Shown one piece after another: positions 3,824 to 55,690 of a stretch of DNA of 64,000 bases; position 1 is the stretch's first letter, and each line of letters starts with the position of its first letter. Below the pieces are notes generated by a model. The model made no database searches. It saw only the letters and a program-made list of their open reading frames with translations, and had not been told where the DNA came from. The DNA lies in NCBI GenBank assembly GCA_001793855.1, contig MGIR01000001.1, positions 93,891-157,890 of the forward strand, read 5' to 3'. Origin of the DNA: Candidatus Wolfebacteria bacterium RIFCSPLOWO2_01_FULL_45_19 (lineage in GTDB: Bacteria > Patescibacteriota > Minisyncoccia > UBA6257 > GWB1-45-9). A program made the position numbers and the translations under genes.

Positions 3824-3861
3824 GGGTGCGTGAAGACCGGGTTCGTTTCCCGGCAGCCCGA
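3824..3861 (+). other. tRNA-Pro-like 3' half fragment (diverged paralog)
   Basis: gggtgcgtgaag is identical to the tRNA-Pro 3' half. It then carries a T-arm (ccggg-TTCGTTT-cccgg, lacking A58) and the acceptor strand CAGCCCG plus A. Confidence 0.45.
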
Positions 3862-3868
3862 CAAACAA

Positions 3869-4579
3869 ATGGAATTACAAAAATCTACAAAACAAGAGCG
3901 CCGAGAATTACGCCATCAAGAGAAAATGATGGAGCAAAAGCAACGGGCAAGAAAAGAATTTATAAAACGAATTATTTTTTGGTTCTCAATCCTTATCGTT
4001 ATTGGCGCTTTAATCTTCGGAGTTGCAAAATTTACCAACGCTCCGAGTGGCAGTGACGTTAATAATGATTGGATCAAAGGAAATAGAGAGGCATCTGTTA
4101 CCATTGTTGAATATAGCGATTTTCAATGTCCCGCGTGTGGCGCGTATTATCCTGTGACAAAACAACTCGTAGAGGAATTCGGCGAAAACATTGCTTTTGT
4201 ATATCGCCATTTCCCCTTGAGTCAAATTCACAAGAATGCCGAATTAGCGGCGCAGGCAGCGGAAGCGGCCGGCAAACAAAATAAATTTTGGGAAATGCAT
4301 GATATGATATTTGAAAACCAGAAAGAATGGTCAGACGAGAGAAATGTGAAAGAATTTTTTGTGATGTACGCGGAAGCTCTTAATTTGAACAAAGAACAAT
4401 TTGTTGCTGATTTTGATTTAAAGGAAGTAATGGATAAGATAAATGCAGATTATAAAAGCGGACTTCGCTACAGCGTGAACGCTGTTCCTACTTTTTTTCT
4501 GAACGGAGAGAAATTGCAAAATCCAAGAAATTACGAAGATTTTAAATCCATTATCCAAGAGTATATTTCTCAACAATAA
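3869..4579 (+). CDS. DsbA-family thiol:disulfide oxidoreductase, membrane-anchored
   Basis: An N-terminal transmembrane segment is followed by a thioredoxin fold with a CPAC active site (DFQCPACG). The start was set at MELQK after the tRNA-like fragment; the track's 3812 start overlaps it. Confidence 0.7.
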   Translation: MELQKSTKQERRELRHQEKMMEQKQRARKEFIKRIIFWFSILIVIGALIFGVAKFTNAPSGSDVNNDWIKGNREASVTIVEYSDFQCPACGAYYPVTKQLVEEFGENIAFVYRHFPLSQIHKNAELAAQAAEAAGKQNKFWEMHDMIFENQKEWSDERNVKEFFVMYAEALNLNKEQFVADFDLKEVMDKINADYKSGLRYSVNAVPTFFLNGEKLQNPRNYEDFKSIIQEYISQQ

Positions 4580-46817: not shown

Positions 46818-47351
46818 GCCGATGTAGCCATACCCTTCAATCTGCGACCATTTCTTAATTTGATATTGGTCTATAATCTTAGTATACTAGGATTATGCCA
46901 AATCCTAAGAAGCCCAGGAGCAATTGTCTTATTTGCAGTAAAGAAACGAACCGCGCGGAATATAAATATTGCAGTAACGCATGTCAGCAAGAATATCAAT
47001 ACGATGTGTATATTCATAGATGGAAAAAAGGTGAAGAGAAAGGTTTAAGCTCAATCGGATTAGTTTCACCGTACATAAAACGATATTTACGCAGAAAGTT
47101 TAAAAATAAATGTTGTTTGTGCGAATGGGCAGAAATTAATCCGAAAACTGGATTAGTTCCATTAGTTGCTGATCATATTGATGGAAATTGGAAAAATAAT
47201 ATCGAGAAAAATCTGCGTTTAATTTGTCCGAATTGTGATTCGTTAAGTCCTACGTTTGCTGCGTTAAATAAAGGAAATGGACGAACAAATAGAACTCGAA
47301 GTAAACGGGCACAAGAAGGTCGTTTGTTGGCAATGAATATGCCGATGTAGC
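46818..47351 (+). mobile_element. candidate insertion: free-standing HNH endonuclease gene bounded by 11-bp direct repeats derived from the 5' end of tRNA-Thr
   Basis: gccgatgtagc occurs at 46818-46828 and again at 47341-47351 (the tRNA-Thr 5' end). The enclosed segment is AT-rich. Confidence 0.45.
46895..47350 (+). CDS. HNH endonuclease with zinc-finger
   Basis: The HNH motif (VADHIDGNWKNN...NLRLICPNC) is present with paired CxxC motifs. The CDS 3' end overlaps the tRNA-Thr 5' end. Confidence 0.7.
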   Translation: MPNPKKPRSNCLICSKETNRAEYKYCSNACQQEYQYDVYIHRWKKGEEKGLSSIGLVSPYIKRYLRRKFKNKCCLCEWAEINPKTGLVPLVADHIDGNWKNNIEKNLRLICPNCDSLSPTFAALNKGNGRTNRTRSKRAQEGRLLAMNMPM

Positions 47352-47414
47352 TTAGTGGCAAAGCAATGGTTTCGTAAACCATGGACGGCAGTTCAATTCT
47401 GCCCATCGGCTCCA
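47341..47414 (+). tRNA. tRNA-Thr (anticodon CGU), CCA encoded
   Basis: The acceptor stem is GCCGATG/CATCGGC. The anticodon arm is atggt-TTCGTAA-accat and the T-loop is TTCAATT. The 3' end is TCCA. Confidence 0.85.
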
Positions 47415-48401: not shown

Positions 48402-48464
48402 TTCGCTCACGAATTTATTGCTTTCACTTCGCTAATAGGTTTCGTAAAGGATGGTTTGAGCTTA

Positions 48465-48494
48465 TTGGCCGTGCCGTTCCGGCCGTGGTATAAT
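48465..48494 (+). promoter_or_regulatory. promoter TTGGCC-N18-TATAAT
   Basis: The elements are in the sequence, upstream of prfB. Confidence 0.45.
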
Positions 48495-48509
48495 CAAAGC
48501 TCAAGAACG

Positions 48510-49566
48510 ATGAAAAAATTTGAAGACAGAAAACAAACGCTGAAAGAGCGCGCCCGACTTCTATCGGGCCGTCTTTGACGTATCGGGAAAAAAGAAAAAG
48601 ATAGAAGAGATTGACGGCGAAGTAAGCAATCCCGAAATATGGAAAGACCGCAGACGCGCGGAGGAATTGCTTAAAGAACGCGGCCAGCTTCACGAATTGG
48701 TCGCGCAGTTTGAGGAACTTGAAAAAGAAATTGAAGTTGCGGACGAGGGGAATATTGATGAGACAGAAAAAAAATTCAACAAACTTGAACTTCAACGGCT
48801 TCTTTCCGGAAAATATGATGCTTCCAACGCCGTGGTTTCAATTTTTTCCGGAGCCGGCGGACAAGACGCCGAGGATTGGACCGCGATGCTTTATGAAATG
48901 TACGCAAAGTACGCTGCAGAGCGCAAATGGCAAATAGTGATTCTGGACGAACGCTTCGGCGAAGTCGGCGCGAAAACCGGGCGTATGCCGTTAAAACACA
49001 TCTCTTTTGAAATAAAAGGGGGGCATGCTTTCGGCTATCTTAAGGGCGAGCAGGGAGTGCACCGCTTGGTGAGAACTTCCCCGTTTTCGGCGAAACAATC
49101 GCGCCACACCTCTTTCGCTCTGGTTGAGGTTTTGCCGGAACTTCCGGAAATAGAAGAAAAAAATATGGTTCTTCCGTCTGAGGACTTGGAAGTGGATTTT
49201 TCGCGCGCAGGCGGTCCCGGCGGCCAGAACGTAAACAAGGTTGAAACGGCTGTACGGATAACCCATAAACCAACCGGAATAACCGCGGCTTCGCGCTCAG
49301 AACGTTCCCAATCGCAAAATCGCGAGAAAGCGCTAAAATTGCTTAAAGCAAAATTATTTCGCTTTATGGAAACGGCTCAAATTAAAGAACTCGGCGCCCT
49401 GCGCACGAAAGTCAAGCCGGAATGGGGCAGTCAGATCCGTTCTTATGTTTTAAACCCGTATAAAATGGTAAAAGACCACCGAACCGGCGCGGAAACGGCG
49501 CAAGTGGAAAATGTGTTAAACGGCGAAATTGATATATTTATTGAAGCCGAGTTACAATTAGGATAA
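48510..49566 (+). CDS. prfB: peptide chain release factor 2, requires programmed +1 frameshift (join 48510..48575, 48577..49566)
   Basis: Frame 0 encodes [22 protein letters not shown] and then TGA. The +1 frame continues as DVSGKKK and runs into the 299-aa RF2 body, which carries SPF and GGQ motifs. Confidence 0.9.
48573..48579 (+). other. canonical RF2 autoregulatory +1 frameshift site CTT TGA C
   Basis: CTTTGAC sits exactly at the junction of the two frames. A weak GGG Shine-Dalgarno-like element lies upstream. Confidence 0.85.
49437..49558 (+). repeat. direct repeat, left copy (prfB 3' end)
   Basis: About 88% identical to 55497-55618. Confidence 0.8.
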
Positions 49567-49568
49567 TC

Positions 49569-52500
49569 ATGAATATTGAAAAATTGCTCCTGTTTTCGTT
49601 AATTGTTGTAATTTTTTGGACAGGGATTTGGGAGATAAATATAGCATTTGCCAATTTTAGCGACGATTTTGAAGCATATGAGGTTGATTCCTTGTTGAGT
49701 GATACCGCCGATTGGGAATGCAGCGGTTCTTCCGTTTGGAGGATAACAGATCAAGATTTTAATACAGGCACTCGTTCGGTGGGTCGCATAGAAAACACTG
49801 GTCACTCCCGTCATTGTTGGAGAAATTTTGAAGTTACGAAATCCGGGGTTTTTAAACTTTCCATAAAAAGACCCTCTACTTTTGGATTCGAAGGCCCAGC
49901 TTTTGAATTAAGAACAGGACCGGGTACTTCCGGCGATTTTGTTGCCAACTTTGCTTATAGTAATGATAGAACCATTTCGTGTAATGCCCCAGGTTTTAGT
50001 TTTACTTGTGGAACTTGGACTCCAAATGAATGGCAAGAACATGGCATAGCTTGGAATTCTGTCAATAATAAAATTCGGTGGTTTATGAATGGTGAATGGA
50101 CTGAATTTAAAAGCAGCGATATTCCTGCTCCCGCGAGCGCTACTATTAGTTGTTGCACCTCCGGCCATGAAGGTGTTTTTCTAGATGATATTAAGTTTAC
50201 TCCAGGAATTAAAAATTTAGAAATCACAGAACCTCCATCAACAGAAATTTCTGAGTCACCTTCAAATTTCGTTATTCAATTTGATACTGATGCAACAAAT
50301 TGGAACGGCAAGGTGGACGTTCAGGTTCGCGAGCTTACAGACCCTTTCCGTGATACCGGTATGCTTTCTGGCTACCAATCTTTCACTTTTTCAAGCGCGG
50401 GCACCAAAACGGTTGCTTTTACTAATCCTCTGAATTTTTTGCCAAGCGGAAGATACAAACTAACCGTTAGAGTATTTGCCTCTGTGCCTGGAGGAGATTT
50501 TCTGGAACTCGATAATATTTCCCGCATATTCCGCCTCCCTTCCGGATTTTTTACCGATCTTGATGAAGATTTTGAAGCATACGAGGTTGGTCAACAATTA
50601 GGCAAACAAGATAATTGGGAATGCAATGAGTCCATAGAAACGCACAGGTGGTTTGTTAATGATGAAAATGTTTTTTCAGGAGCCAGGGCTATACGTAAAA
50701 TGGGCGCTCATGATGCAATTTGTCGTAGAAATTTTGACAACGTTAGCAATGGGCAAATCTTTTTTGCCGCAAATCACGCGCAAGCAGACCCATTTAGCAG
50801 ATTAGCTTTTTCAGTTAGGAATGCGGCAGGCAATATAAATGATCAGTTCGGCGGCTCAGAAGATAGAATCGGACTTATTAATTTAAGAGGAGACGGAACG
50901 GTTGAATGTCACACTATTGAAAGCTCTTCTGTTTGCGGCACTCACAATATAGGCGAATGGGCTCAATATGGTATTGAGTGGGATGGTATATTAGGGCGCG
51001 TTCGTTTTAATGTTAATGGGGAGTGGACGGATTGGTTTGATAGTAATAACGCTCGCGATGGCGCGGAATTTTACTTTTTAGCCGCTGGCGCCGGCTCTGG
51101 CAATACTCAGGTTATGTTTATAGACGATATTCGTTTTGCTTTTGTTACTCCGGAACCAGAACAATTAAATCCTGTTATTATAGTGCCGGGGCTTTTGGGG
51201 TCGTGGCAGAAAGATGGTGAATGGATTATTGATCCGATTTTTCGTAAATATGATGAATTAATTCGTCTTCTTGACGTAAGTGGATACACGCCGGATGTTG
51301 ATTTGTTTACTTTTCCTTATGACTGGCAGCAAGGTGTAAGTTTGAGCAGCGATCAGCTTGCAGCAAAAATTGTCGAAATACGGAGCATTTGCCAGTGTCA
51401 AAAAGTGGATATAATCGCGCACAGCATGGGCGGTTTGGTGGCGCGTTCATATGCCCAAAGTGGTGATTATCAAAACGATATTGACCAAATTATCTTTTTG
51501 GGAACATCGCACGAAGGATTATCTTGGGCATACTTGTTATGGGAAGGAGGAGAAATAACGCCACAAATATTTTCTTTGGGCTTTGATAAAATAATGGAGC
51601 TTTATTTGAATTGGAAATCTATTATTTCTTTCGCTGGAAGTAAATTTGCTTATATCCAAAACGCCATTCTTTCAATTAAAGATTTGTTGCCGACTTATGA
51701 TTACTTGAAGGATGCGGATACTGAAATTTTGCGTAATTATCCTGATAATTATCCCGTCAATTTCTTTTTGGAACTATTGAATTCTTCTTTATCAGAAAAT
51801 AGATTGTCAGAACGCGGTATCAGAATTACTAATATTGTCGGCAACATAGAGCCAAACTTTATAGATGGCAAACTGGTAGATGAAACTTTGGGCACGATAA
51901 GGGTTGTGGATAGGCCTAATCTTTTACCGAAATGGGAGCATGGTTTTCCAGAAAATTTCGACGTACCATTTACCGACCACGGCTTGGAGTTCGATGAGGG
52001 AGATCGCAGAGTTACTCTTGAAAGTGCTTCTCACAACTTTTCTTCAACCGTTATCTCACGTGCCGATCGCAATCTTCACGCAAACTTGCCTGTGGTCGCC
52101 TGGCAGCAAATTCACGAAGCGTTATTCGGCATCCCATCGCCTGAGCGGGGAGTCCCTATTGTTATTGAAGAATCGTTGATTATACCGATTTTTTCGCCTG
52201 CTGATATCCAAATTATCGATCCGCTAGGCAGGAGAATTGGCAAGGATTTTTCAATTGGTCAGGAAATTAATGAAATACCCTTCGCATTCTACAGCGGCTT
52301 TAATAGCGATTTGGAATTTATTTTTATTCCCAATCCTCTTGATGGAGAATATCAAATCAAAGTTCAGGGAACCGATGAGGGCAGTTATGAAGTTCAATCT
52401 GCTTTTGTCAACGATGCAACTTCAACAGTTGCGACTTTTATGGCCAATATTCAAGAGAGCCTTGTTCAGAATCTGAGCTTTGTCTTTAATGTTTCCTCGC

Positions 52501-53129
52501 CGGAGTTAACAACTATACAACCGGAAGATACAACTCCACCTATCATAACCAGCACTCAAATTCCATCCGAAGTTTTGTTGAACTCACCGCCCTTAACGTT
52601 TAATTTCTCAGCTCAAGACGATTTAACGGGTGTATTCAGCATATCAGCAACGCTAAATGATCAATCTATCACTAATGGTTCTGCCATAAACTTTGATATT
52701 CCCGGAACTTACTTTATAGAGATCGTTGCGGAAGATTTTGTGGGCAACGTTGCTACGGAAACAATAATATTTGATGTAATTTATGAGTTTGGCGGTTTTC
52801 TTCCGCCGGTTAAAGCCGATGGCTCTGGCATTTATAAACTCGGCAGAACTTTGCCCGTGAAGTTCCAGTTGGCCGATGTTTCTGGTCAGTTTATTTCTAC
52901 AGCTACAGCGACACTTACCCTTGCTAAAGTTCAAGACGAAAGCATCGGCAACGAGGAAACTCCTCTTTCTACATCGGCGGCTGACACAGATAATATTTTT
53001 AGATATGATAGTGAGAATAACCAATATATTTATAATTTATCTACTGATATGATGTCAGTAGGAACGTGGCAATTAAGAATTAATTTGGATGACGACCGAC
53101 ATTACACAGTGTTTATATCAATAAAATAA
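49569..53129 (+). CDS. large secreted/surface protein: signal/TM + 2 LamG-like domains + class-2-lipase-like alpha/beta hydrolase + Ig-like (HYR/PKD-like) domains + C-terminal ~105-aa variable module
   Basis: The N-terminal hydrophobic segment is followed by a duplicated ~190-aa domain that starts DDFEAYEV and ends DDI(K/R)F. The lipase core (PVIIVPGLLGS, VDIIAHSMGG) resembles B. subtilis LipA (VDIVAHSMGG). A VGN-containing beta-domain follows. The C-terminal module is FRYDSENNQYIYNL...GTWQLRINLDDD. Confidence 0.7.
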   Translation: MNIEKLLLFSLIVVIFWTGIWEINIAFANFSDDFEAYEVDSLLSDTADWECSGSSVWRITDQDFNTGTRSVGRIENTGHSRHCWRNFEVTKSGVFKLSIKRPSTFGFEGPAFELRTGPGTSGDFVANFAYSNDRTISCNAPGFSFTCGTWTPNEWQEHGIAWNSVNNKIRWFMNGEWTEFKSSDIPAPASATISCCTSGHEGVFLDDIKFTPGIKNLEITEPPSTEISESPSNFVIQFDTDATNWNGKVDVQVRELTDPFRDTGMLSGYQSFTFSSAGTKTVAFTNPLNFLPSGRYKLTVRVFASVPGGDFLELDNISRIFRLPSGFFTDLDEDFEAYEVGQQLGKQDNWECNESIETHRWFVNDENVFSGARAIRKMGAHDAICRRNFDNVSNGQIFFAANHAQADPFSRLAFSVRNAAGNINDQFGGSEDRIGLINLRGDGTVECHTIESSSVCGTHNIGEWAQYGIEWDGILGRVRFNVNGEWTDWFDSNNARDGAEFYFLAAGAGSGNTQVMFIDDIRFAFVTPEPEQLNPVIIVPGLLGSWQKDGEWIIDPIFRKYDELIRLLDVSGYTPDVDLFTFPYDWQQGVSLSSDQLAAKIVEIRSICQCQKVDIIAHSMGGLVARSYAQSGDYQNDIDQIIFLGTSHEGLSWAYLLWEGGEITPQIFSLGFDKIMELYLNWKSIISFAGSKFAYIQNAILSIKDLLPTYDYLKDADTEILRNYPDNYPVNFFLELLNSSLSENRLSERGIRITNIVGNIEPNFIDGKLVDETLGTIRVVDRPNLLPKWEHGFPENFDVPFTDHGLEFDEGDRRVTLESASHNFSSTVISRADRNLHANLPVVAWQQIHEALFGIPSPERGVPIVIEESLIIPIFSPADIQIIDPLGRRIGKDFSIGQEINEIPFAFYSGFNSDLEFIFIPNPLDGEYQIKVQGTDEGSYEVQSAFVNDATSTVATFMANIQESLVQNLSFVFNVSSPELTTIQPEDTTPPIITSTQIPSEVLLNSPPLTFNFSAQDDLTGVFSISATLNDQSITNGSAINFDIPGTYFIEIVAEDFVGNVATETIIFDVIYEFGGFLPPVKADGSGIYKLGRTLPVKFQLADVSGQFISTATATLTLAKVQDESIGNEETPLSTSAADTDNIFRYDSENNQYIYNLSTDMMSVGTWQLRINLDDDRHYTVFISIK

Positions 53130-53132
53130 AGC

Positions 53133-53747
53133 ATGAAGAATTTGCCTCAAATGCAAAAATTGGCACTTATATTGTTATTAACGCTCATACTTACCTTTTT
53201 CACGGCGGAATTTATTGGTCGTCTCCTATTTGACTTTATTCTTGACAAATTCCCTCCGATCTTTGGAGTTTCATTTGGATATCAGGAGATGTGGTACTAT
53301 ATTTTCGGCCTCTTTGCGGCACCAATTATTTTGTTCTCTCTTTCTCTCTATATTATCGTTGATAAAACAGAAATACGATTAAAAGAAGTTCTTACGCAGT
53401 TCCTTAAGAGCAGCACGGTTCTATTAGTAACCGCATTGTTGAGTTATTTTATGGGTGGTTATTTTGGATGGATAGCAGAAAGATTTTCCCCAGATTTAGC
53501 CTCTGGTTGGATACCCACGAAATCAGCAAGGATTCTAGTCGGCACACTCCACGCCCCTTCTTTCTTTCTTTCTTTCTTTTACTTTTTTCTCGTGAGAATG
53601 AAAGAGAATATCTTTAGAAATATTATGATTGCTTTTCTAATCCTATCAGTTCTTCCCAACCTTATTTTCGCGCCAATTTATATCGCCGTTGGATACGTAT
53701 TGGCAAAATCTATTCTTTATTTAAAATCACAAATAGTAAAAAAATGA
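53133..53747 (+). CDS. hypothetical membrane protein (204 aa), contains in-frame (TTTC)5
   Basis: Multiple transmembrane segments are present. The protein is a weak paralog of the small ORFs at 54062 and 54878 (FILDKFPPIFGVSFG versus FLENFGIFLTSSFPSL). Confidence 0.5.
   Translation: MKNLPQMQKLALILLLTLILTFFTAEFIGRLLFDFILDKFPPIFGVSFGYQEMWYYIFGLFAAPIILFSLSLYIIVDKTEIRLKEVLTQFLKSSTVLLVTALLSYFMGGYFGWIAERFSPDLASGWIPTKSARILVGTLHAPSFFLSFFYFFLVRMKENIFRNIMIAFLILSVLPNLIFAPIYIAVGYVLAKSILYLKSQIVKK
53557..53580. repeat. (TTTC)5-6 tetranucleotide microsatellite inside CDS
   Basis: cttctttctttctttctttctttt. Confidence 0.8.
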
Positions 53748-54044
53748 CCGCTTTTCAACCGCACACTTCCCGTTAAATTTCAATTAACGGATTTAAATAA
53801 TACCTTCATTGATTCCGCAACAGCCCATCTTTTCCTTGCCAAATTAACAGATGACATACTGGGAACGGAAGAAATAGCCATATCAACATCAAATGCAGAT
53901 ACCGGCAATCAATTTAGATATGACGACGAAAACAACCAATATATATTTAATCTTGATACAGGAACGTTATCCGTAGGAACTTGGCGACTGAGAGTAGAAC
54001 TTGATGATGGAAAAAGCTATATTGTGAATGTATCAATGAGGTGA
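53748..54044 (+). pseudogene. start-less paralogous copy (fragment 1) of the C-terminal module of the 1186-aa protein
   Basis: The fragment encodes LFNRTLPVKFQLTD...FRYDDENNQYIFNLDTGTLSVGTWRLRVELDDGKSYIVNVSMR and then a stop. It begins directly after the stop of ORF 53133. It is about 90% identical in nucleotides to fragment 2. Confidence 0.7.
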
Positions 54045-54061
54045 GGAAATAAAAGAAAAAC

Positions 54062-54262
54062 ATGAAATTTCACATGAAGAAATCATATTGGATAAATCTA
54101 GGGCTTGGGTTGGGAGTTGGGTTGATGTGGGGTTTTGGTATATTTACATACGGGTTTTTAGCAAGAGCGAATGTTTTAATTGCGGAATTTTTAATTAGTG
54201 TTTTTCCTTTCCTGAATTTTAAATTATTTGAACCTGAATATATATATATATATATATTCTAG
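54062..54262 (+). CDS. small membrane ORF (66 aa), truncated paralog of 54878 ORF; ends in (TA)n
   Basis: MKFHMKKSYWINLGLGLGVG matches MKLQIKKSYLISLGLGILGA in the 54878 ORF. Confidence 0.4.
   Translation: MKFHMKKSYWINLGLGLGVGLMWGFGIFTYGFLARANVLIAEFLISVFPFLNFKLFEPEYIYIYIF
54238..54257. repeat. (TA)10 dinucleotide microsatellite at 3' end of ORF 54062
   Basis: tatatatatatatatatata. Confidence 0.85.
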
Positions 54263-54344
54263 CTATTTTATTATTTTACCTCTCTTGTTTTTGAATTTTG
54301 CCTTTCCTATTTTTAGACAAGAATTTCGCGAATCCGTTAACAAG

Positions 54345-54378
54345 CTTTCTTTTCTTTTCTTTTCTTTTCTTTTCTTTC
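54345..54378. repeat. (TTTTC)6 pentanucleotide microsatellite
   Basis: ctttc followed by five copies of ttttc. Confidence 0.85.
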
Positions 54379-54448
54379 GGCGCTATACTTGCTTGTAGAT
54401 TTTGGATTTGGGGTATACATCAAGCCTTCTCCAACGCTTCGTTTCTGT

Positions 54449-54861
54449 AAATAGTAGAATCCAAAGACAATGCTGGTAATCCAAGAGTTTCAGAGTTTCG
54501 TTTTAACGCCATTTATCAATTTAACGGCTTTCTTCCACCTATCAAATCTGATGGCTCCGGCATTTACAAACTCAATCGCACACTTCCTGTTAAATTCCAA
54601 TTAACAGACGCGAACGGCAATTTTATTGATTCCGCAATCGCGTATCTTTTCCTTGCCAAACTAACAAATGACATACTGGGAACAGAAGAAATAGCCATAT
54701 CAACATCAAATGCAGATACAAGCAATCAATTTAGATATGACGATGAAACCAACCAATACATATTCAATCTTGATACCGGAACATTATCCGCAGGAACATG
54801 GAGGTTGAGAACAGAACTTGATGATGGAAAAAGCTATACTGTAGATATATCAATGAGGTGA
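54449..54861 (+). pseudogene. start-less paralogous copy (fragment 2) of the C-terminal region of the 1186-aa protein
   Basis: The fragment encodes VESKDNAGNPRVSEFRFNAIYQFNGFLPPIKSDGSGIYKLNRTLPVKFQLTD...GTWRLRTELDDGKSYTVDISMR and then a stop. It is preceded by an in-frame TAA. Confidence 0.7.
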
Positions 54862-54877: not shown

Positions 54878-55174
54878 ATGAAATTACAAATCAAGAAATC
54901 GTATTTGATTAGTTTGGGGTTGGGGATTTTGGGAGCAGCGGTTGTAATGTTTAGTGCTTTGAAATTTCAATTTTTTGGATTATTTTTGGAAAATTTCGGT
55001 ATTTTTTTAACATCCTCGTTCCCATCTCTTGATATATACTCATTTGAAATTCCGGGCTTTGTAGTTTATTTAATATGTCTTCCTTTTATATTATTAAACA
55101 ACGCGTTCTCCATATTCATTCAAGAACTAAAAGCATCTGCTCATAAGCCTTCTTTTTCTTTTCTTTGGGAGTAG
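54878..55174 (+). CDS. small membrane ORF (98 aa), paralog of 54062 ORF
   Basis: Transmembrane segments are present. Its 3' end contains a TTTTC-type repeat (55150-55168). Confidence 0.45.
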   Translation: MKLQIKKSYLISLGLGILGAAVVMFSALKFQFFGLFLENFGIFLTSSFPSLDIYSFEIPGFVVYLICLPFILLNNAFSIFIQELKASAHKPSFSFLWE

Positions 55175-55196
55175 CATTGTCTTATAGTTTTTTTGT

Positions 55197-55498
55197 TTGG
55201 CTCGCATTGAATACTCTTTCTTTTTAAATTTCAGCAATAAAATCTTTTCTGCCACAGATGATCTATCCGGAGTAGAAATTATTAAGGCAACCCTCAATGA
55301 CGCGTCCATTAATCAAAATGATGTAATAGTAATAGACACAGCAGGGGAATACATTTTACGCATAGAATCCAAAGATAAAGCAGGCAATCCAGCTGTTTTC
55401 GAATCGGAATTCAGCATAATATTATGATTTCGTAAGCATCCTTCCGCCTATCAAGTTAAATGGTTCGGGTATATATAAACGTGGCCGCACTCTTCCTC
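55197..55498 (+). pseudogene. paralogous fragment 3 (frameshifted) of the Ig-like plus C-terminal module
   Basis: The fragment encodes DDLSGVEIIKATLNDASINQ...ESKDKAGNPAVFESEF. After a frameshift near 55425 it encodes YYDFVSILPPIKLNGSGIYKRGRTLP. It abuts the prfB 3' end copy. Confidence 0.6.
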
Positions 55499-55618
55499 GC
55501 TCTTATGTTCTAAACCCGTATAAAATGATAAAAGACCACCGAACCGGCGCGGAAACGGCGCAAGTTGACGAAACGCTGAACGGCGATATTGATATGTTCA
55601 TAGAAGCCGAGTTACAAT
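55497..55618 (+). repeat. direct repeat, right copy: 122-bp duplicate of prfB 3' end (about 88% identical)
   Basis: This copy encodes [41 protein letters not shown]. The prfB 3' end encodes [42 protein letters not shown]. Confidence 0.8.
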
Positions 55619-55690
55619 ATAGTAAGTAGAACTTAGCGAGTAGCAAGTAGAAATCCTACTGCCTACTGTCTAAGTTCTAAATTCTAAACA

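Follow-up and report, generated by a model that had tools for sequence, protein, structure and literature searches.

Three perfect microsatellites and one imperfect relative lie inside a row of small membrane-protein genes in a stretch of 64,000 nucleotides (nt) of contig MGIR01000001.1 from Candidatus Wolfebacteria bacterium RIFCSPLOWO2_01_FULL_45_19 (assembly GCA_001793855.1), which at its full length is referred to here as the window. Two of these genes, copy 2 and copy 3, are assigned to the SFLFF family of membrane proteins, in which a pentamer tract is conserved as DNA and not merely as peptide; the other gene, ORF204, is an open reading frame (ORF) of 204 amino acids (aa). We put at roughly 0.55 the probability that the tract holds slipped-strand frameshift sites which are still mutationally active across the family, and which would act as switches. 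The genes and repeats concerned are these:

53133 to 53747, + strand: ORF204, an intact multi-transmembrane ORF that starts 4 nt after the stop of a 1186-aa ORF
53558 to 53579, + strand: (TTCT)5.5 microsatellite inside ORF204, 22 nt, 100% perfect, encoding SFFLSFF
54062 to 54450, + strand: membrane-ORF copy 2, SFLFF family, in three frames, recognised by hidden Markov model (HMM) hits
54238 to 54257, + strand: (AT)10 microsatellite, 20 nt, 100% perfect, encoding YIYIYIY; first frame break of copy 2
54346 to 54377, + strand: (TTTCT)6.4 microsatellite, 32 nt, 100% perfect, encoding SFLFFSFLFF; second frame break of copy 2
54878 to 55227, + strand: membrane-ORF copy 3, SFLFF family, a 98-aa ORF with the conserved tail in another frame
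55150 to 55166, + strand: TTCTTTTTCTTTTCTTT, 17 nt, what is left of the family tract, collapsed and imperfect; copy 3 changes frame here

Each of the four tracts is located within an ORF and is built of units whose length is not divisible by 3, and changing the number of units in silico toggles the product between full-length and truncated forms. The three perfect repeats, located by Tandem Repeats Finder and a regular-expression scan, fall within about 820 nt, and a census of units of 2-6 nt in at least 3 copies found them to be the sole perfect repeats of at least 12 nt in the window. First-order Markov simulations predicted 0.025 repeats of at least 18 nt per 64-kb window, compared with the 3 observed, and under the local composition the figure for the surrounding 2.4 kb was 0.002. 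Among 106 related loci totalling 517 kb, a scan for pentamers of at least 15 nt and homopolymers of at least 10 nt returned, besides the pentamer tract, just one AATTT repeat (15 nt) and one G10. An assembly artefact was ruled out, as identical sequences are present in 7-11 distinct contigs, in other assemblies and from several pipelines. The repeats are thus real and non-random. The preliminary description of this DNA had placed a (TTTC)5-6 run in frame inside the 204-aa ORF at 53557-53580, a (TA)10 run at 54238-54257 as the 3′ end of a 66-aa ORF, (TTTTC)6 at 54345-54378, and a shorter TTTTC-type run in the 3′ end of the ORF at 54878; its coordinates and ORF relationships were right to within 1-2 nt, with the first and third runs now refined to (TTCT)5.5 and (TTTCT)6.4 and the last identified as the imperfect 17-nt run, which is related to the pentamer tract.

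Such repeats could be mere low-complexity coding sequence, in which an S/F/L-rich transmembrane helix is written in T/C-rich codons and the apparent frameshifts are mis-called tiny ORFs in spacer DNA. The region is indeed T-rich (35% T, about 37% GC), and neither ORF204 nor the 66-aa and 98-aa ORFs matched any Pfam or NCBIfam family. However, three repeats were observed where the local composition predicts 0.002, the frame-restored ORFs align end to end with intact homologues, and the synonymous choices within the tract are identical across lineages whose synonymous sites are otherwise saturated, as detailed below. This explanation is effectively refuted, and we give it almost no credence.

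The 66-aa ORF (54062-54262) ends in (AT)10 and the 98-aa ORF (54878-55174) ends in the imperfect run. When their frames are restored, to 131 aa and about 116 aa, copies 2 and 3 are 41% identical, which bears out the earlier suggestion that the two ORFs are paralogous; equally, the paralogue had been said to lack the TA run, and it has only GATATATAC where the 66-aa ORF has (TA)10, a copy-2-specific expansion. Copy 2 is read in a first frame up to (AT)10, in a second up to (TTTCT)6.4 and in a third for its tail, with HMM profile hits at positions 2-59, 46-99 and 85-123 in the three frames that together cover positions 2-123. Copy 3 changes frame at its 17-nt tract, and its profile hits cover positions 2-119 in two frames. 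All three frame breaks in the window therefore fall at repeats, and copies 2 and 3 carry no other damage.

The 32-nt tract of copy 2 is exactly one pentamer below the in-frame length of 37-38 nt, and one added pentamer gives exactly the 37-nt length found in the family. Whether alternative repeat numbers restore longer ORFs, a check proposed earlier, was examined in silico, and both copies regained length: copy 2 was restored to a 131-aa ORF with the conserved tail only by (TA)11 (or 8) together with one pentamer more (or two fewer), while a change of +1, -2 or -5 nt in the tract of copy 3 gave an ORF of 114-116 aa. The chance probability that the restored frame is free of stop codons is 2e-4 for copy 2 and 6e-4 for copy 3, and the other frames contain 6-11 stops. 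The PxKF-domain cassettes that neighbour the broken membrane ORFs are under purifying selection, with a ratio of nonsynonymous to synonymous substitution rates (dN/dS) of 0.14 at a dS of 0.53 between cassettes 2 and 3. Because the restored frames are stop-free, the damage is confined to slippage-prone runs and the dN/dS of the cassettes is low, these sequences have evolved as coding DNA.

Hydropathy analysis indicates that the products of the membrane ORFs are small hydrophobic proteins. SFLFFSFLFFS, the peptide encoded by the pentamer tract, makes up the first half of the final helix, which is also the most hydrophobic one, and a frame shift at the tract removes the second half of this helix together with the C-terminus, a tail of about 20-25 residues. 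The frames that follow the tract are short or non-hydrophobic and are not conserved, which rules out a switch between alternative C-termini.

ORF204 is currently ON, with its tract in frame at residues 142-148 of 204. Adding or removing 1 or 2 TTCT units in silico truncated the product to 152-162 aa, as expected from the earlier proposal that gain or loss of a unit shifts this frame, and changes of 3 units in either direction kept the frame. A search for homologues of ORF204 found only its own cluster, making it a species-specific ORFan. We considered whether it is a diverged paralogue of the SFLFF family, given an uncorrected BLASTP E-value of 2e-4, but hhalign assigned a probability of 1% and there was no HMM hit at E<1, so this relationship was rejected; the resemblance is only local, consisting of an H-x-P-S-F motif before the tract.

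Searching with a profile built from the frame-restored copies brought up P0007, an intact homologue of 135 aa, at 94% coverage, and an exhaustive HMMER search of 1.84 billion representative proteins returned 8 members only (P0004, P0005 and P0007-P0012), with E-values of 8e-23 for P0004 and 6e-40 for P0005. All 8 carry a SFLFFSFLFFSLG-type segment followed by a hydrophobic tail. On these profile matches, copies 2 and 3 belong to a rare membrane-protein family specific to Patescibacteria. A metagenome scan with the alignment of the membrane family was abandoned, since its pattern [FS][LF]F[FL]SFL[FS]F gave 600 low-complexity stretches of which none was confirmed, and a scan for the PxKF domain took its place (L numbers denote loci and contigs from other assemblies). 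In L015, L016, L036 and L040 the family gene starts at most about 35 nt from the stop of a PxKF domain. L037 (GCA_964650215.1, CAZYSC010000035.1) holds, at 3850-4170, an orphan PxKF fragment followed by a second SFLFF-family copy, which is broken only at a C8 homopolymer and at a 33-nt imperfect pyrimidine tract.

The tract itself is perfect, as (TTTTC)7TTT or (TTTCT)7TT, and 37-38 nt long in L015, L016 (same sequence as L041) and L040, where the 13-codon segment reads xTT TCT TTT CTT TTC TTT TCT TTT CTT TTC TTT TCT TTx. These three loci are identical at 33/33 nt and 11/11 codons within the tract. Outside it they share 17-28% aa identity, and their synonymous sites are saturated, since only 25-57% of the codons for the same residue are identical. 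Given the peptide and the local codon usage, the probability of a perfect tract is 6e-6 to 3e-5 per lineage. The same 13-codon segment is found in 6 of 7 aligned intact homologues, the exception being L038, which is shorter (27 nt). The perfect runs in L036, L037 and L038 measure 25, 17 and 24 nt, with T-to-C transitions interrupting those of L036 and L037, and in L035, L017, L020, L046 and L049 the tract is interrupted or degenerate while the genes are intact. Three of the four perfect tracts of at least 32 nt are ON and one is OFF. These data describe a microsatellite life cycle, in which several deep lineages have kept the tract perfect, always at the same in-frame length.

We propose that the microsatellites would serve as slippage sites in small membrane genes co-encoded with the PxKF domain of a giant LCAT-like surface protein, with ongoing slippage re-homogenising the run while selection would hold its in-frame length. 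Copy 2 would have lost one pentamer and acquired an out-of-frame (TA)10 expansion, and the run of copy 3 would have collapsed to 17 nt; each of these changes would remove the last helix, leaving both copies presently OFF and otherwise undamaged, with ORF204 ON. The synonymous purity of the tract over saturating divergence would be hard to attain unless units had been repeatedly lost and regained, and if so, out-of-frame states would have been tolerated for a while and then reverted, which is phase variation in practice. Because the tract is pure at the DNA level across lineages whose flanking codons are saturated, the process may be reversible, and reversible phase variation is a plausible reading of these sequences. 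We infer, further, that the switches may still flip both ways at a useful rate and that flipping would alter a property of the cell surface. The context is compatible with a surface function, as the 1186-aa protein upstream is secreted and has Ig-like and lipase-like domains.

The membrane genes form part of an array between prfB and ftsE, whose other features are:

ending at 49566: prfB, the upstream neighbour of the 1186-aa gene
49569 to 53129, + strand: 1186-aa secreted multidomain protein (Pfam, NCBIfam NF038114, hydropathy)
53748 to 54044, + strand: orphan PxKF cassette 2, 98 codons, without a start codon, beginning ...RTLPVKFQL
54451 to 54861, + strand: orphan PxKF cassette 3, 136 codons, without a start codon, directly after the stop of copy 2
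55197 to 55497, + strand: degenerate cassette 4, a penultimate domain and the start of PxKF (HMM positions 22-52), cut at ...GRTLP
55498 to 55629, + strand: remnant of the prfB 3′ end with its own stop codon, 88% identical to 49438-49558; right border of the array
downstream of the array: ftsE and ftsX

The 1186-aa gene is the expressed head of the array. Its product has an N-terminal hydrophobic signal or anchor by hydropathy, an LCAT/PGAP1-like alpha/beta-hydrolase domain at residues 535-657 and an OmpL47-type domain, both from Pfam, and, at its extreme C-terminus (residues 1076-1185 of 1186, nt 52794-53126), the PxKF 'rightmost' domain. This domain scored 68.7 bits against NCBIfam NF038114, for which the curated cutoff is 35, and the PxKF domains of cassettes 2 and 3 scored 57.1 and 70.1 bits. 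Each small membrane ORF follows a copy of this C-terminal domain and starts 4-17 nt past its stop. The copies of the module are 56-85% identical in aa sequence and have kept nested amounts of upstream homology. An AlphaFold2 model of cassette 3 is an Ig-like beta-sandwich with a mean confidence score (pLDDT) of 93.8; assigning a specific function from this fold was dropped, as the PDB matches were generic Ig-like folds with TM-scores of 0.3-0.55, and a literature search found nothing relevant on the PxKF domain. Assignment of the array to a toxin-immunity or defence system was likewise rejected, as Pfam, NCBIfam and PADLOC returned no toxin, immunity or defence family. Candidate promoters and terminators that might isolate the orphan copies were just consensus-level matches near the shuffled background, none of them convincing inside the array.

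Other features of the array and its surroundings were also noted. Within the 1186-aa protein, a stretch of about 300 aa is duplicated upstream of the lipase-like domain, with the motif F-x-D-D-F-E-A-Y-E-V repeated at 49647-49686 and 50550-50589, 903 nt apart. The array, of about 6.06 kb, is bracketed by two copies of the last approximately 43 codons of prfB (49438-49558 and 55498-55629, 88% identical), and the right-hand copy is joined straight to the truncated PxKF cassette at ...GRTLP. This arrangement suggests that the whole array may have been inserted between prfB and ftsE together with a replacement 3′ end of prfB; no integrase was seen. Cassette 2 shares the frame of ORF204 and lies directly past its TGA (...IVKK*PLFNRTLPVKFQL..., 53745-53760), such that read-through would fuse the two; the shared frame may be due to chance (1 in 3), and release factor 2 (RF2) is present in the genome. 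Upstream, prfB has a canonical programmed +1 frameshift site, CTT TGA C, at 48574-48580, between its first ORF (48456-48578) and its main ORF. A 151-aa Cys-rich ORF at 46895-47414, with an HNH-like motif (...HIDGNWKNN...CPNCD...) and no Pfam match, ends at a tRNA-Thr(CGT) gene (47341-47414).

The proposal of switches was weighed against the repeat lengths found in other assemblies:

(TTCT)5.5: 22 nt in 11 distinct contigs
(AT)10: 20 nt in 9 distinct contigs
(TTTCT)6.4: 32 nt in 7 distinct contigs
copy 3 tract: 17 nt in 9 distinct contigs

These contigs are consensus sequences, partly chosen by exact protein identity and to that extent biased, and possibly re-assemblies of overlapping samples; L006 and L007, which differ from the window by 10-12 single-nucleotide polymorphisms (SNPs) elsewhere, are unbiased for three of the four tracts. 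The sole clear indel polymorphism among the assemblies lies in a tract: in L014, T5 has become T4 in the copy 3 tract (16 nt), which yields the 102-aa protein P0006 and the other OFF frame. L124 (ERZ28564304 scaffold_47750), equivalent to 52562-54377 plus 53 nt, matches the window perfectly over 1816 nt, as far as the pentamer tract, and continues with a 37-nt in-frame tract and a different, family-like tail (SFGSYSVYILFMWAALA), the divergent part occupying its final 53 nt; the contig represents either a genuine haplotype whose breakpoint falls within the repeat or an assembly chimera. The comparison of repeat lengths across related genomes, which had been proposed earlier, therefore gave a divided answer: tract lengths of 32, 37 and 38 nt differ between lineages, and L014 adds a 1-nt variant, but the perfect repeats are invariant in the 7-11 contigs.

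Several independent assemblies break beside the repeats: L002 and L003 stop at 54262 and L004 at 54409, L009, L010 and L014 begin at 54424, and L122 has an N-gap at 55134-55144. We did not use these break points as evidence of repeat heterogeneity, as their cause is inseparable from coverage or graph effects.

A number of observations weigh against switching. The three perfect repeats showed no variation in unit number among the 7-11 consensus contigs save in L124, which is ambiguous, since assembly may have fused two sequences at the repeat they share. For copy 2, two independent corrections would have to occur at once, and its (YI)n insertion is not a feature of the family; the (TTCT)5.5 of ORF204 has no support from other lineages, the gene being an ORFan with no detectable family relation. 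Repeats of 5.5-7.6 units are at the low end of known switches. The primary copies in other lineages are all in frame (ON), and the SFLFF motif is kept as peptide in L035-L037 despite the interrupted repeat, which indicates that part of the conservation is due to selection on the protein. Finally, the tract is 3′-proximal, about 70-75% along the ORFs (residues ~100-111 of 114-137 in the SFLFF family), whereas Lin and Kussell (PMC3315296) found N-terminal enrichment of repeats in phase-variable species and weaker selection on C-terminal frameshifts. Thus, where the preliminary description had called the repeats phase-variation switches, the confinement of all frame breaks to repeats, the one-unit deficit of copy 2 and the DNA-level purity of the tract are in its favour, while the invariance of the perfect repeats and their position away from the 5′ end are not.

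The main rival explanation is one-way decay, according to which copies 2 and 3 are redundant, displaced orphans that are dying, and frameshifts have hit slippage-prone sequence first. The (TA)10 would then have expanded after selection was lost, and the perfect tract elsewhere would reflect peptide selection combined with the mutational bias of a T/C-rich proto-repeat. This would account for the identical repeat lengths in all consensus contigs, for the two lesions of copy 2 and the degradation of the copy 3 tract to an imperfect 17 nt, for the two lesions likewise found in the orphan copy of L037, and for the L014 variant, which moves to the other OFF frame and not to ON. It also agrees with the intact, fixed-length primary copies elsewhere, with the conservation of the SFLFF motif as peptide even where the repeat is interrupted, and with the lack of start codons in the cassettes. 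On the other hand, none of the three broken genes has a lesion outside a repeat, although the paralogues are only about 40% identical, which points to long prior maintenance, and the adjacent cassettes have a dN/dS of 0.14. Moreover, if only the peptide were selected, the chance of a perfect tract would be about 1e-5 for each of the three saturated lineages, and slippage could not re-homogenise the tract if each slip were irreversible and lethal to the gene. We consider decay a real possibility, to be entertained tentatively beside the switch that we favour.

Recombination offers a further explanation, in which the repeats are hot spots of non-B DNA that shuffle PxKF cassettes and membrane partners, with the frameshifts as a by-product. 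A triplex could form at (TTCT)n and (TTTCT)n, which are homopurine-homopyrimidine mirror repeats, and a cruciform at (TA)10. The repeats are found only inside the tandem cassette array, arrays of this type are found again in other genomes, contigs of several assemblies end at the repeats or close by, and L124 agrees fully with the window as far as the tract but not beyond it. In L007 (JGI 3300025030), six SNPs within the 30 nt equivalent to 54638-54667 turn cassette 3 into the sequence of cassette 2; this patch could reflect gene conversion between silent cassettes or short-read mis-assembly, and L011 shows two similar changes at a contig edge. Against this, the tract genes of L015, L016 and L036 come directly after one ORF that ends in PxKF, and the fetched DNA (short contigs in the case of L015 and L036) contains no second PxKF copy; the tracts do not mark the edges of the repeated units in the window, as the cassettes begin after the stops of the membrane ORFs, and both L124 and L007 can be explained as short-read assembly chimeras. 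We regard this role for the repeats as quite improbable.

Slippage and recombination might also act together. Slippage would set the membrane partner on or off, and recombination between cassettes would choose the C-terminus of the giant lipase-like protein, so that a self-maintaining, reversible pentamer switch within silent PxKF cassette arrays would generate combinatorial surface variation in these ultra-small, host-dependent bacteria. With such a system, a contingency locus would be described for the first time in the Candidate Phyla Radiation (CPR); its existence in this full form is doubtful.

Multi-cassette arrays are also present in L035 (three PxKF copies and three small membrane ORFs), L037, L026, L056 and L088. 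Sixty-nine PxKF copies had enough downstream sequence to show the ORF that comes next: 11 are followed by a small hydrophobic ORF and about 20 by a soluble ORF of approximately 340-365 aa. The latter, non-hydrophobic and starting 2-13 nt past the stop of the PxKF gene, represents a second and commoner type of partner, found at loci that include L048, L051, L053, L055, L056, L063, L065, L066, L068, L025, L027, L028 and L080. The array of L035 (965-7184; Logan SRR22388033) comprises a 1345-aa giant protein with an LCAT domain, a 138-aa membrane ORF, an orphan PxKF, and P0008, an SFLFF-family member with an interrupted tract, after which come an orphan PxKF called as a 142-aa ORF and a 133-aa membrane ORF. 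The membrane proteins paired with PxKF in this array come from two unrelated families or three, at the least.

The Patescibacteria (CPR) are generally regarded as living on the surface of other cells, and their tiny genomes leave little room for regulation; it was in such a setting that stochastic switches evolved in host-adapted pathogens. Our full-text literature search found no report of repeat-mediated phase variation within CPR bacteria, a match on Saccharibacteria being judged by its abstract. The locus described here is a candidate: a rare family with a perfect pentamer at one in-frame length across deep lineages, and one genome whose copy is one slip away. It further connects the repeat with the PxKF 'rightmost' domain and with giant LCAT-like proteins of the cell surface, which could matter for the contact of lipid-auxotrophic CPR bacteria with host membranes. 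Even if no switching takes place, deep conservation at the DNA level of a frameshift-prone coding repeat is unusual for microsatellite evolution.

The closest known system is that of the Neisseria opa genes, which have a CTCTT pentamer in the 5′ signal-peptide region, where the number of units is highly variable between and within strains and switching has been measured. As that system is generally understood, it shares with the SFLFF genes a pyrimidine-rich coding pentamer in a hydrophobic segment and a multi-copy membrane-gene family; in both, gain or loss of a unit shifts the frame, and copies in one genome can be independently ON or OFF. In contrast to opa, the SFLFF tract lies 70-75% along the ORF and a slip removes the last helix only, the intact genes share one length, and consensus contigs reveal no variation in units within a population; the proteins are unrelated, and the hosts of the SFLFF genes are uncultivated groundwater Patescibacteria.

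The tetranucleotide loci of Haemophilus influenzae and the homopolymer phasomes of Campylobacter and Neisseria (PMC11868660) likewise consist of coding repeats whose unit is not a multiple of three, over-represented relative to composition in small genomes that otherwise avoid repeats, and located in envelope-related genes, as the SFLFF genes may be. They differ in being typically 5′-proximal (PMC3315296), in having more units and in showing length polymorphism from strain to strain, whereas the evidence at the SFLFF locus is comparative (DNA purity and a one-unit deletion) and not population-level. A closer parallel in position is the C-terminal switching of Helicobacter canadensis, where a repeat near the 3′ end reportedly changes or removes the C-terminus only (PMC2823697); the alternative frames of the SFLFF genes are short or non-hydrophobic and unconserved, and the outcome here would be loss of the helix with no alternative tail.

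With orphan module arrays, such as the orphan toxin-immunity pairs of contact-dependent growth inhibition (CDI) and rearrangement hotspot (Rhs) systems or silent pilS-type cassettes, in their commonly described form, the array shares a full-length gene and, downstream of it, copies of its 3′ end that lack a start codon. A small membrane ORF accompanies every copy, and the arrangement recurs in the same five loci, L035, L037, L026, L056 and L088. Unlike in CDI and Rhs systems, the repeated module is an Ig-like PxKF domain, 56-85% identical between copies, and not a polymorphic toxin. Mechanistically, the locus would be of a known kind, a coding-repeat contingency locus, and what is unusual about it is the deep DNA-level conservation of the repeat at a fixed in-frame length.

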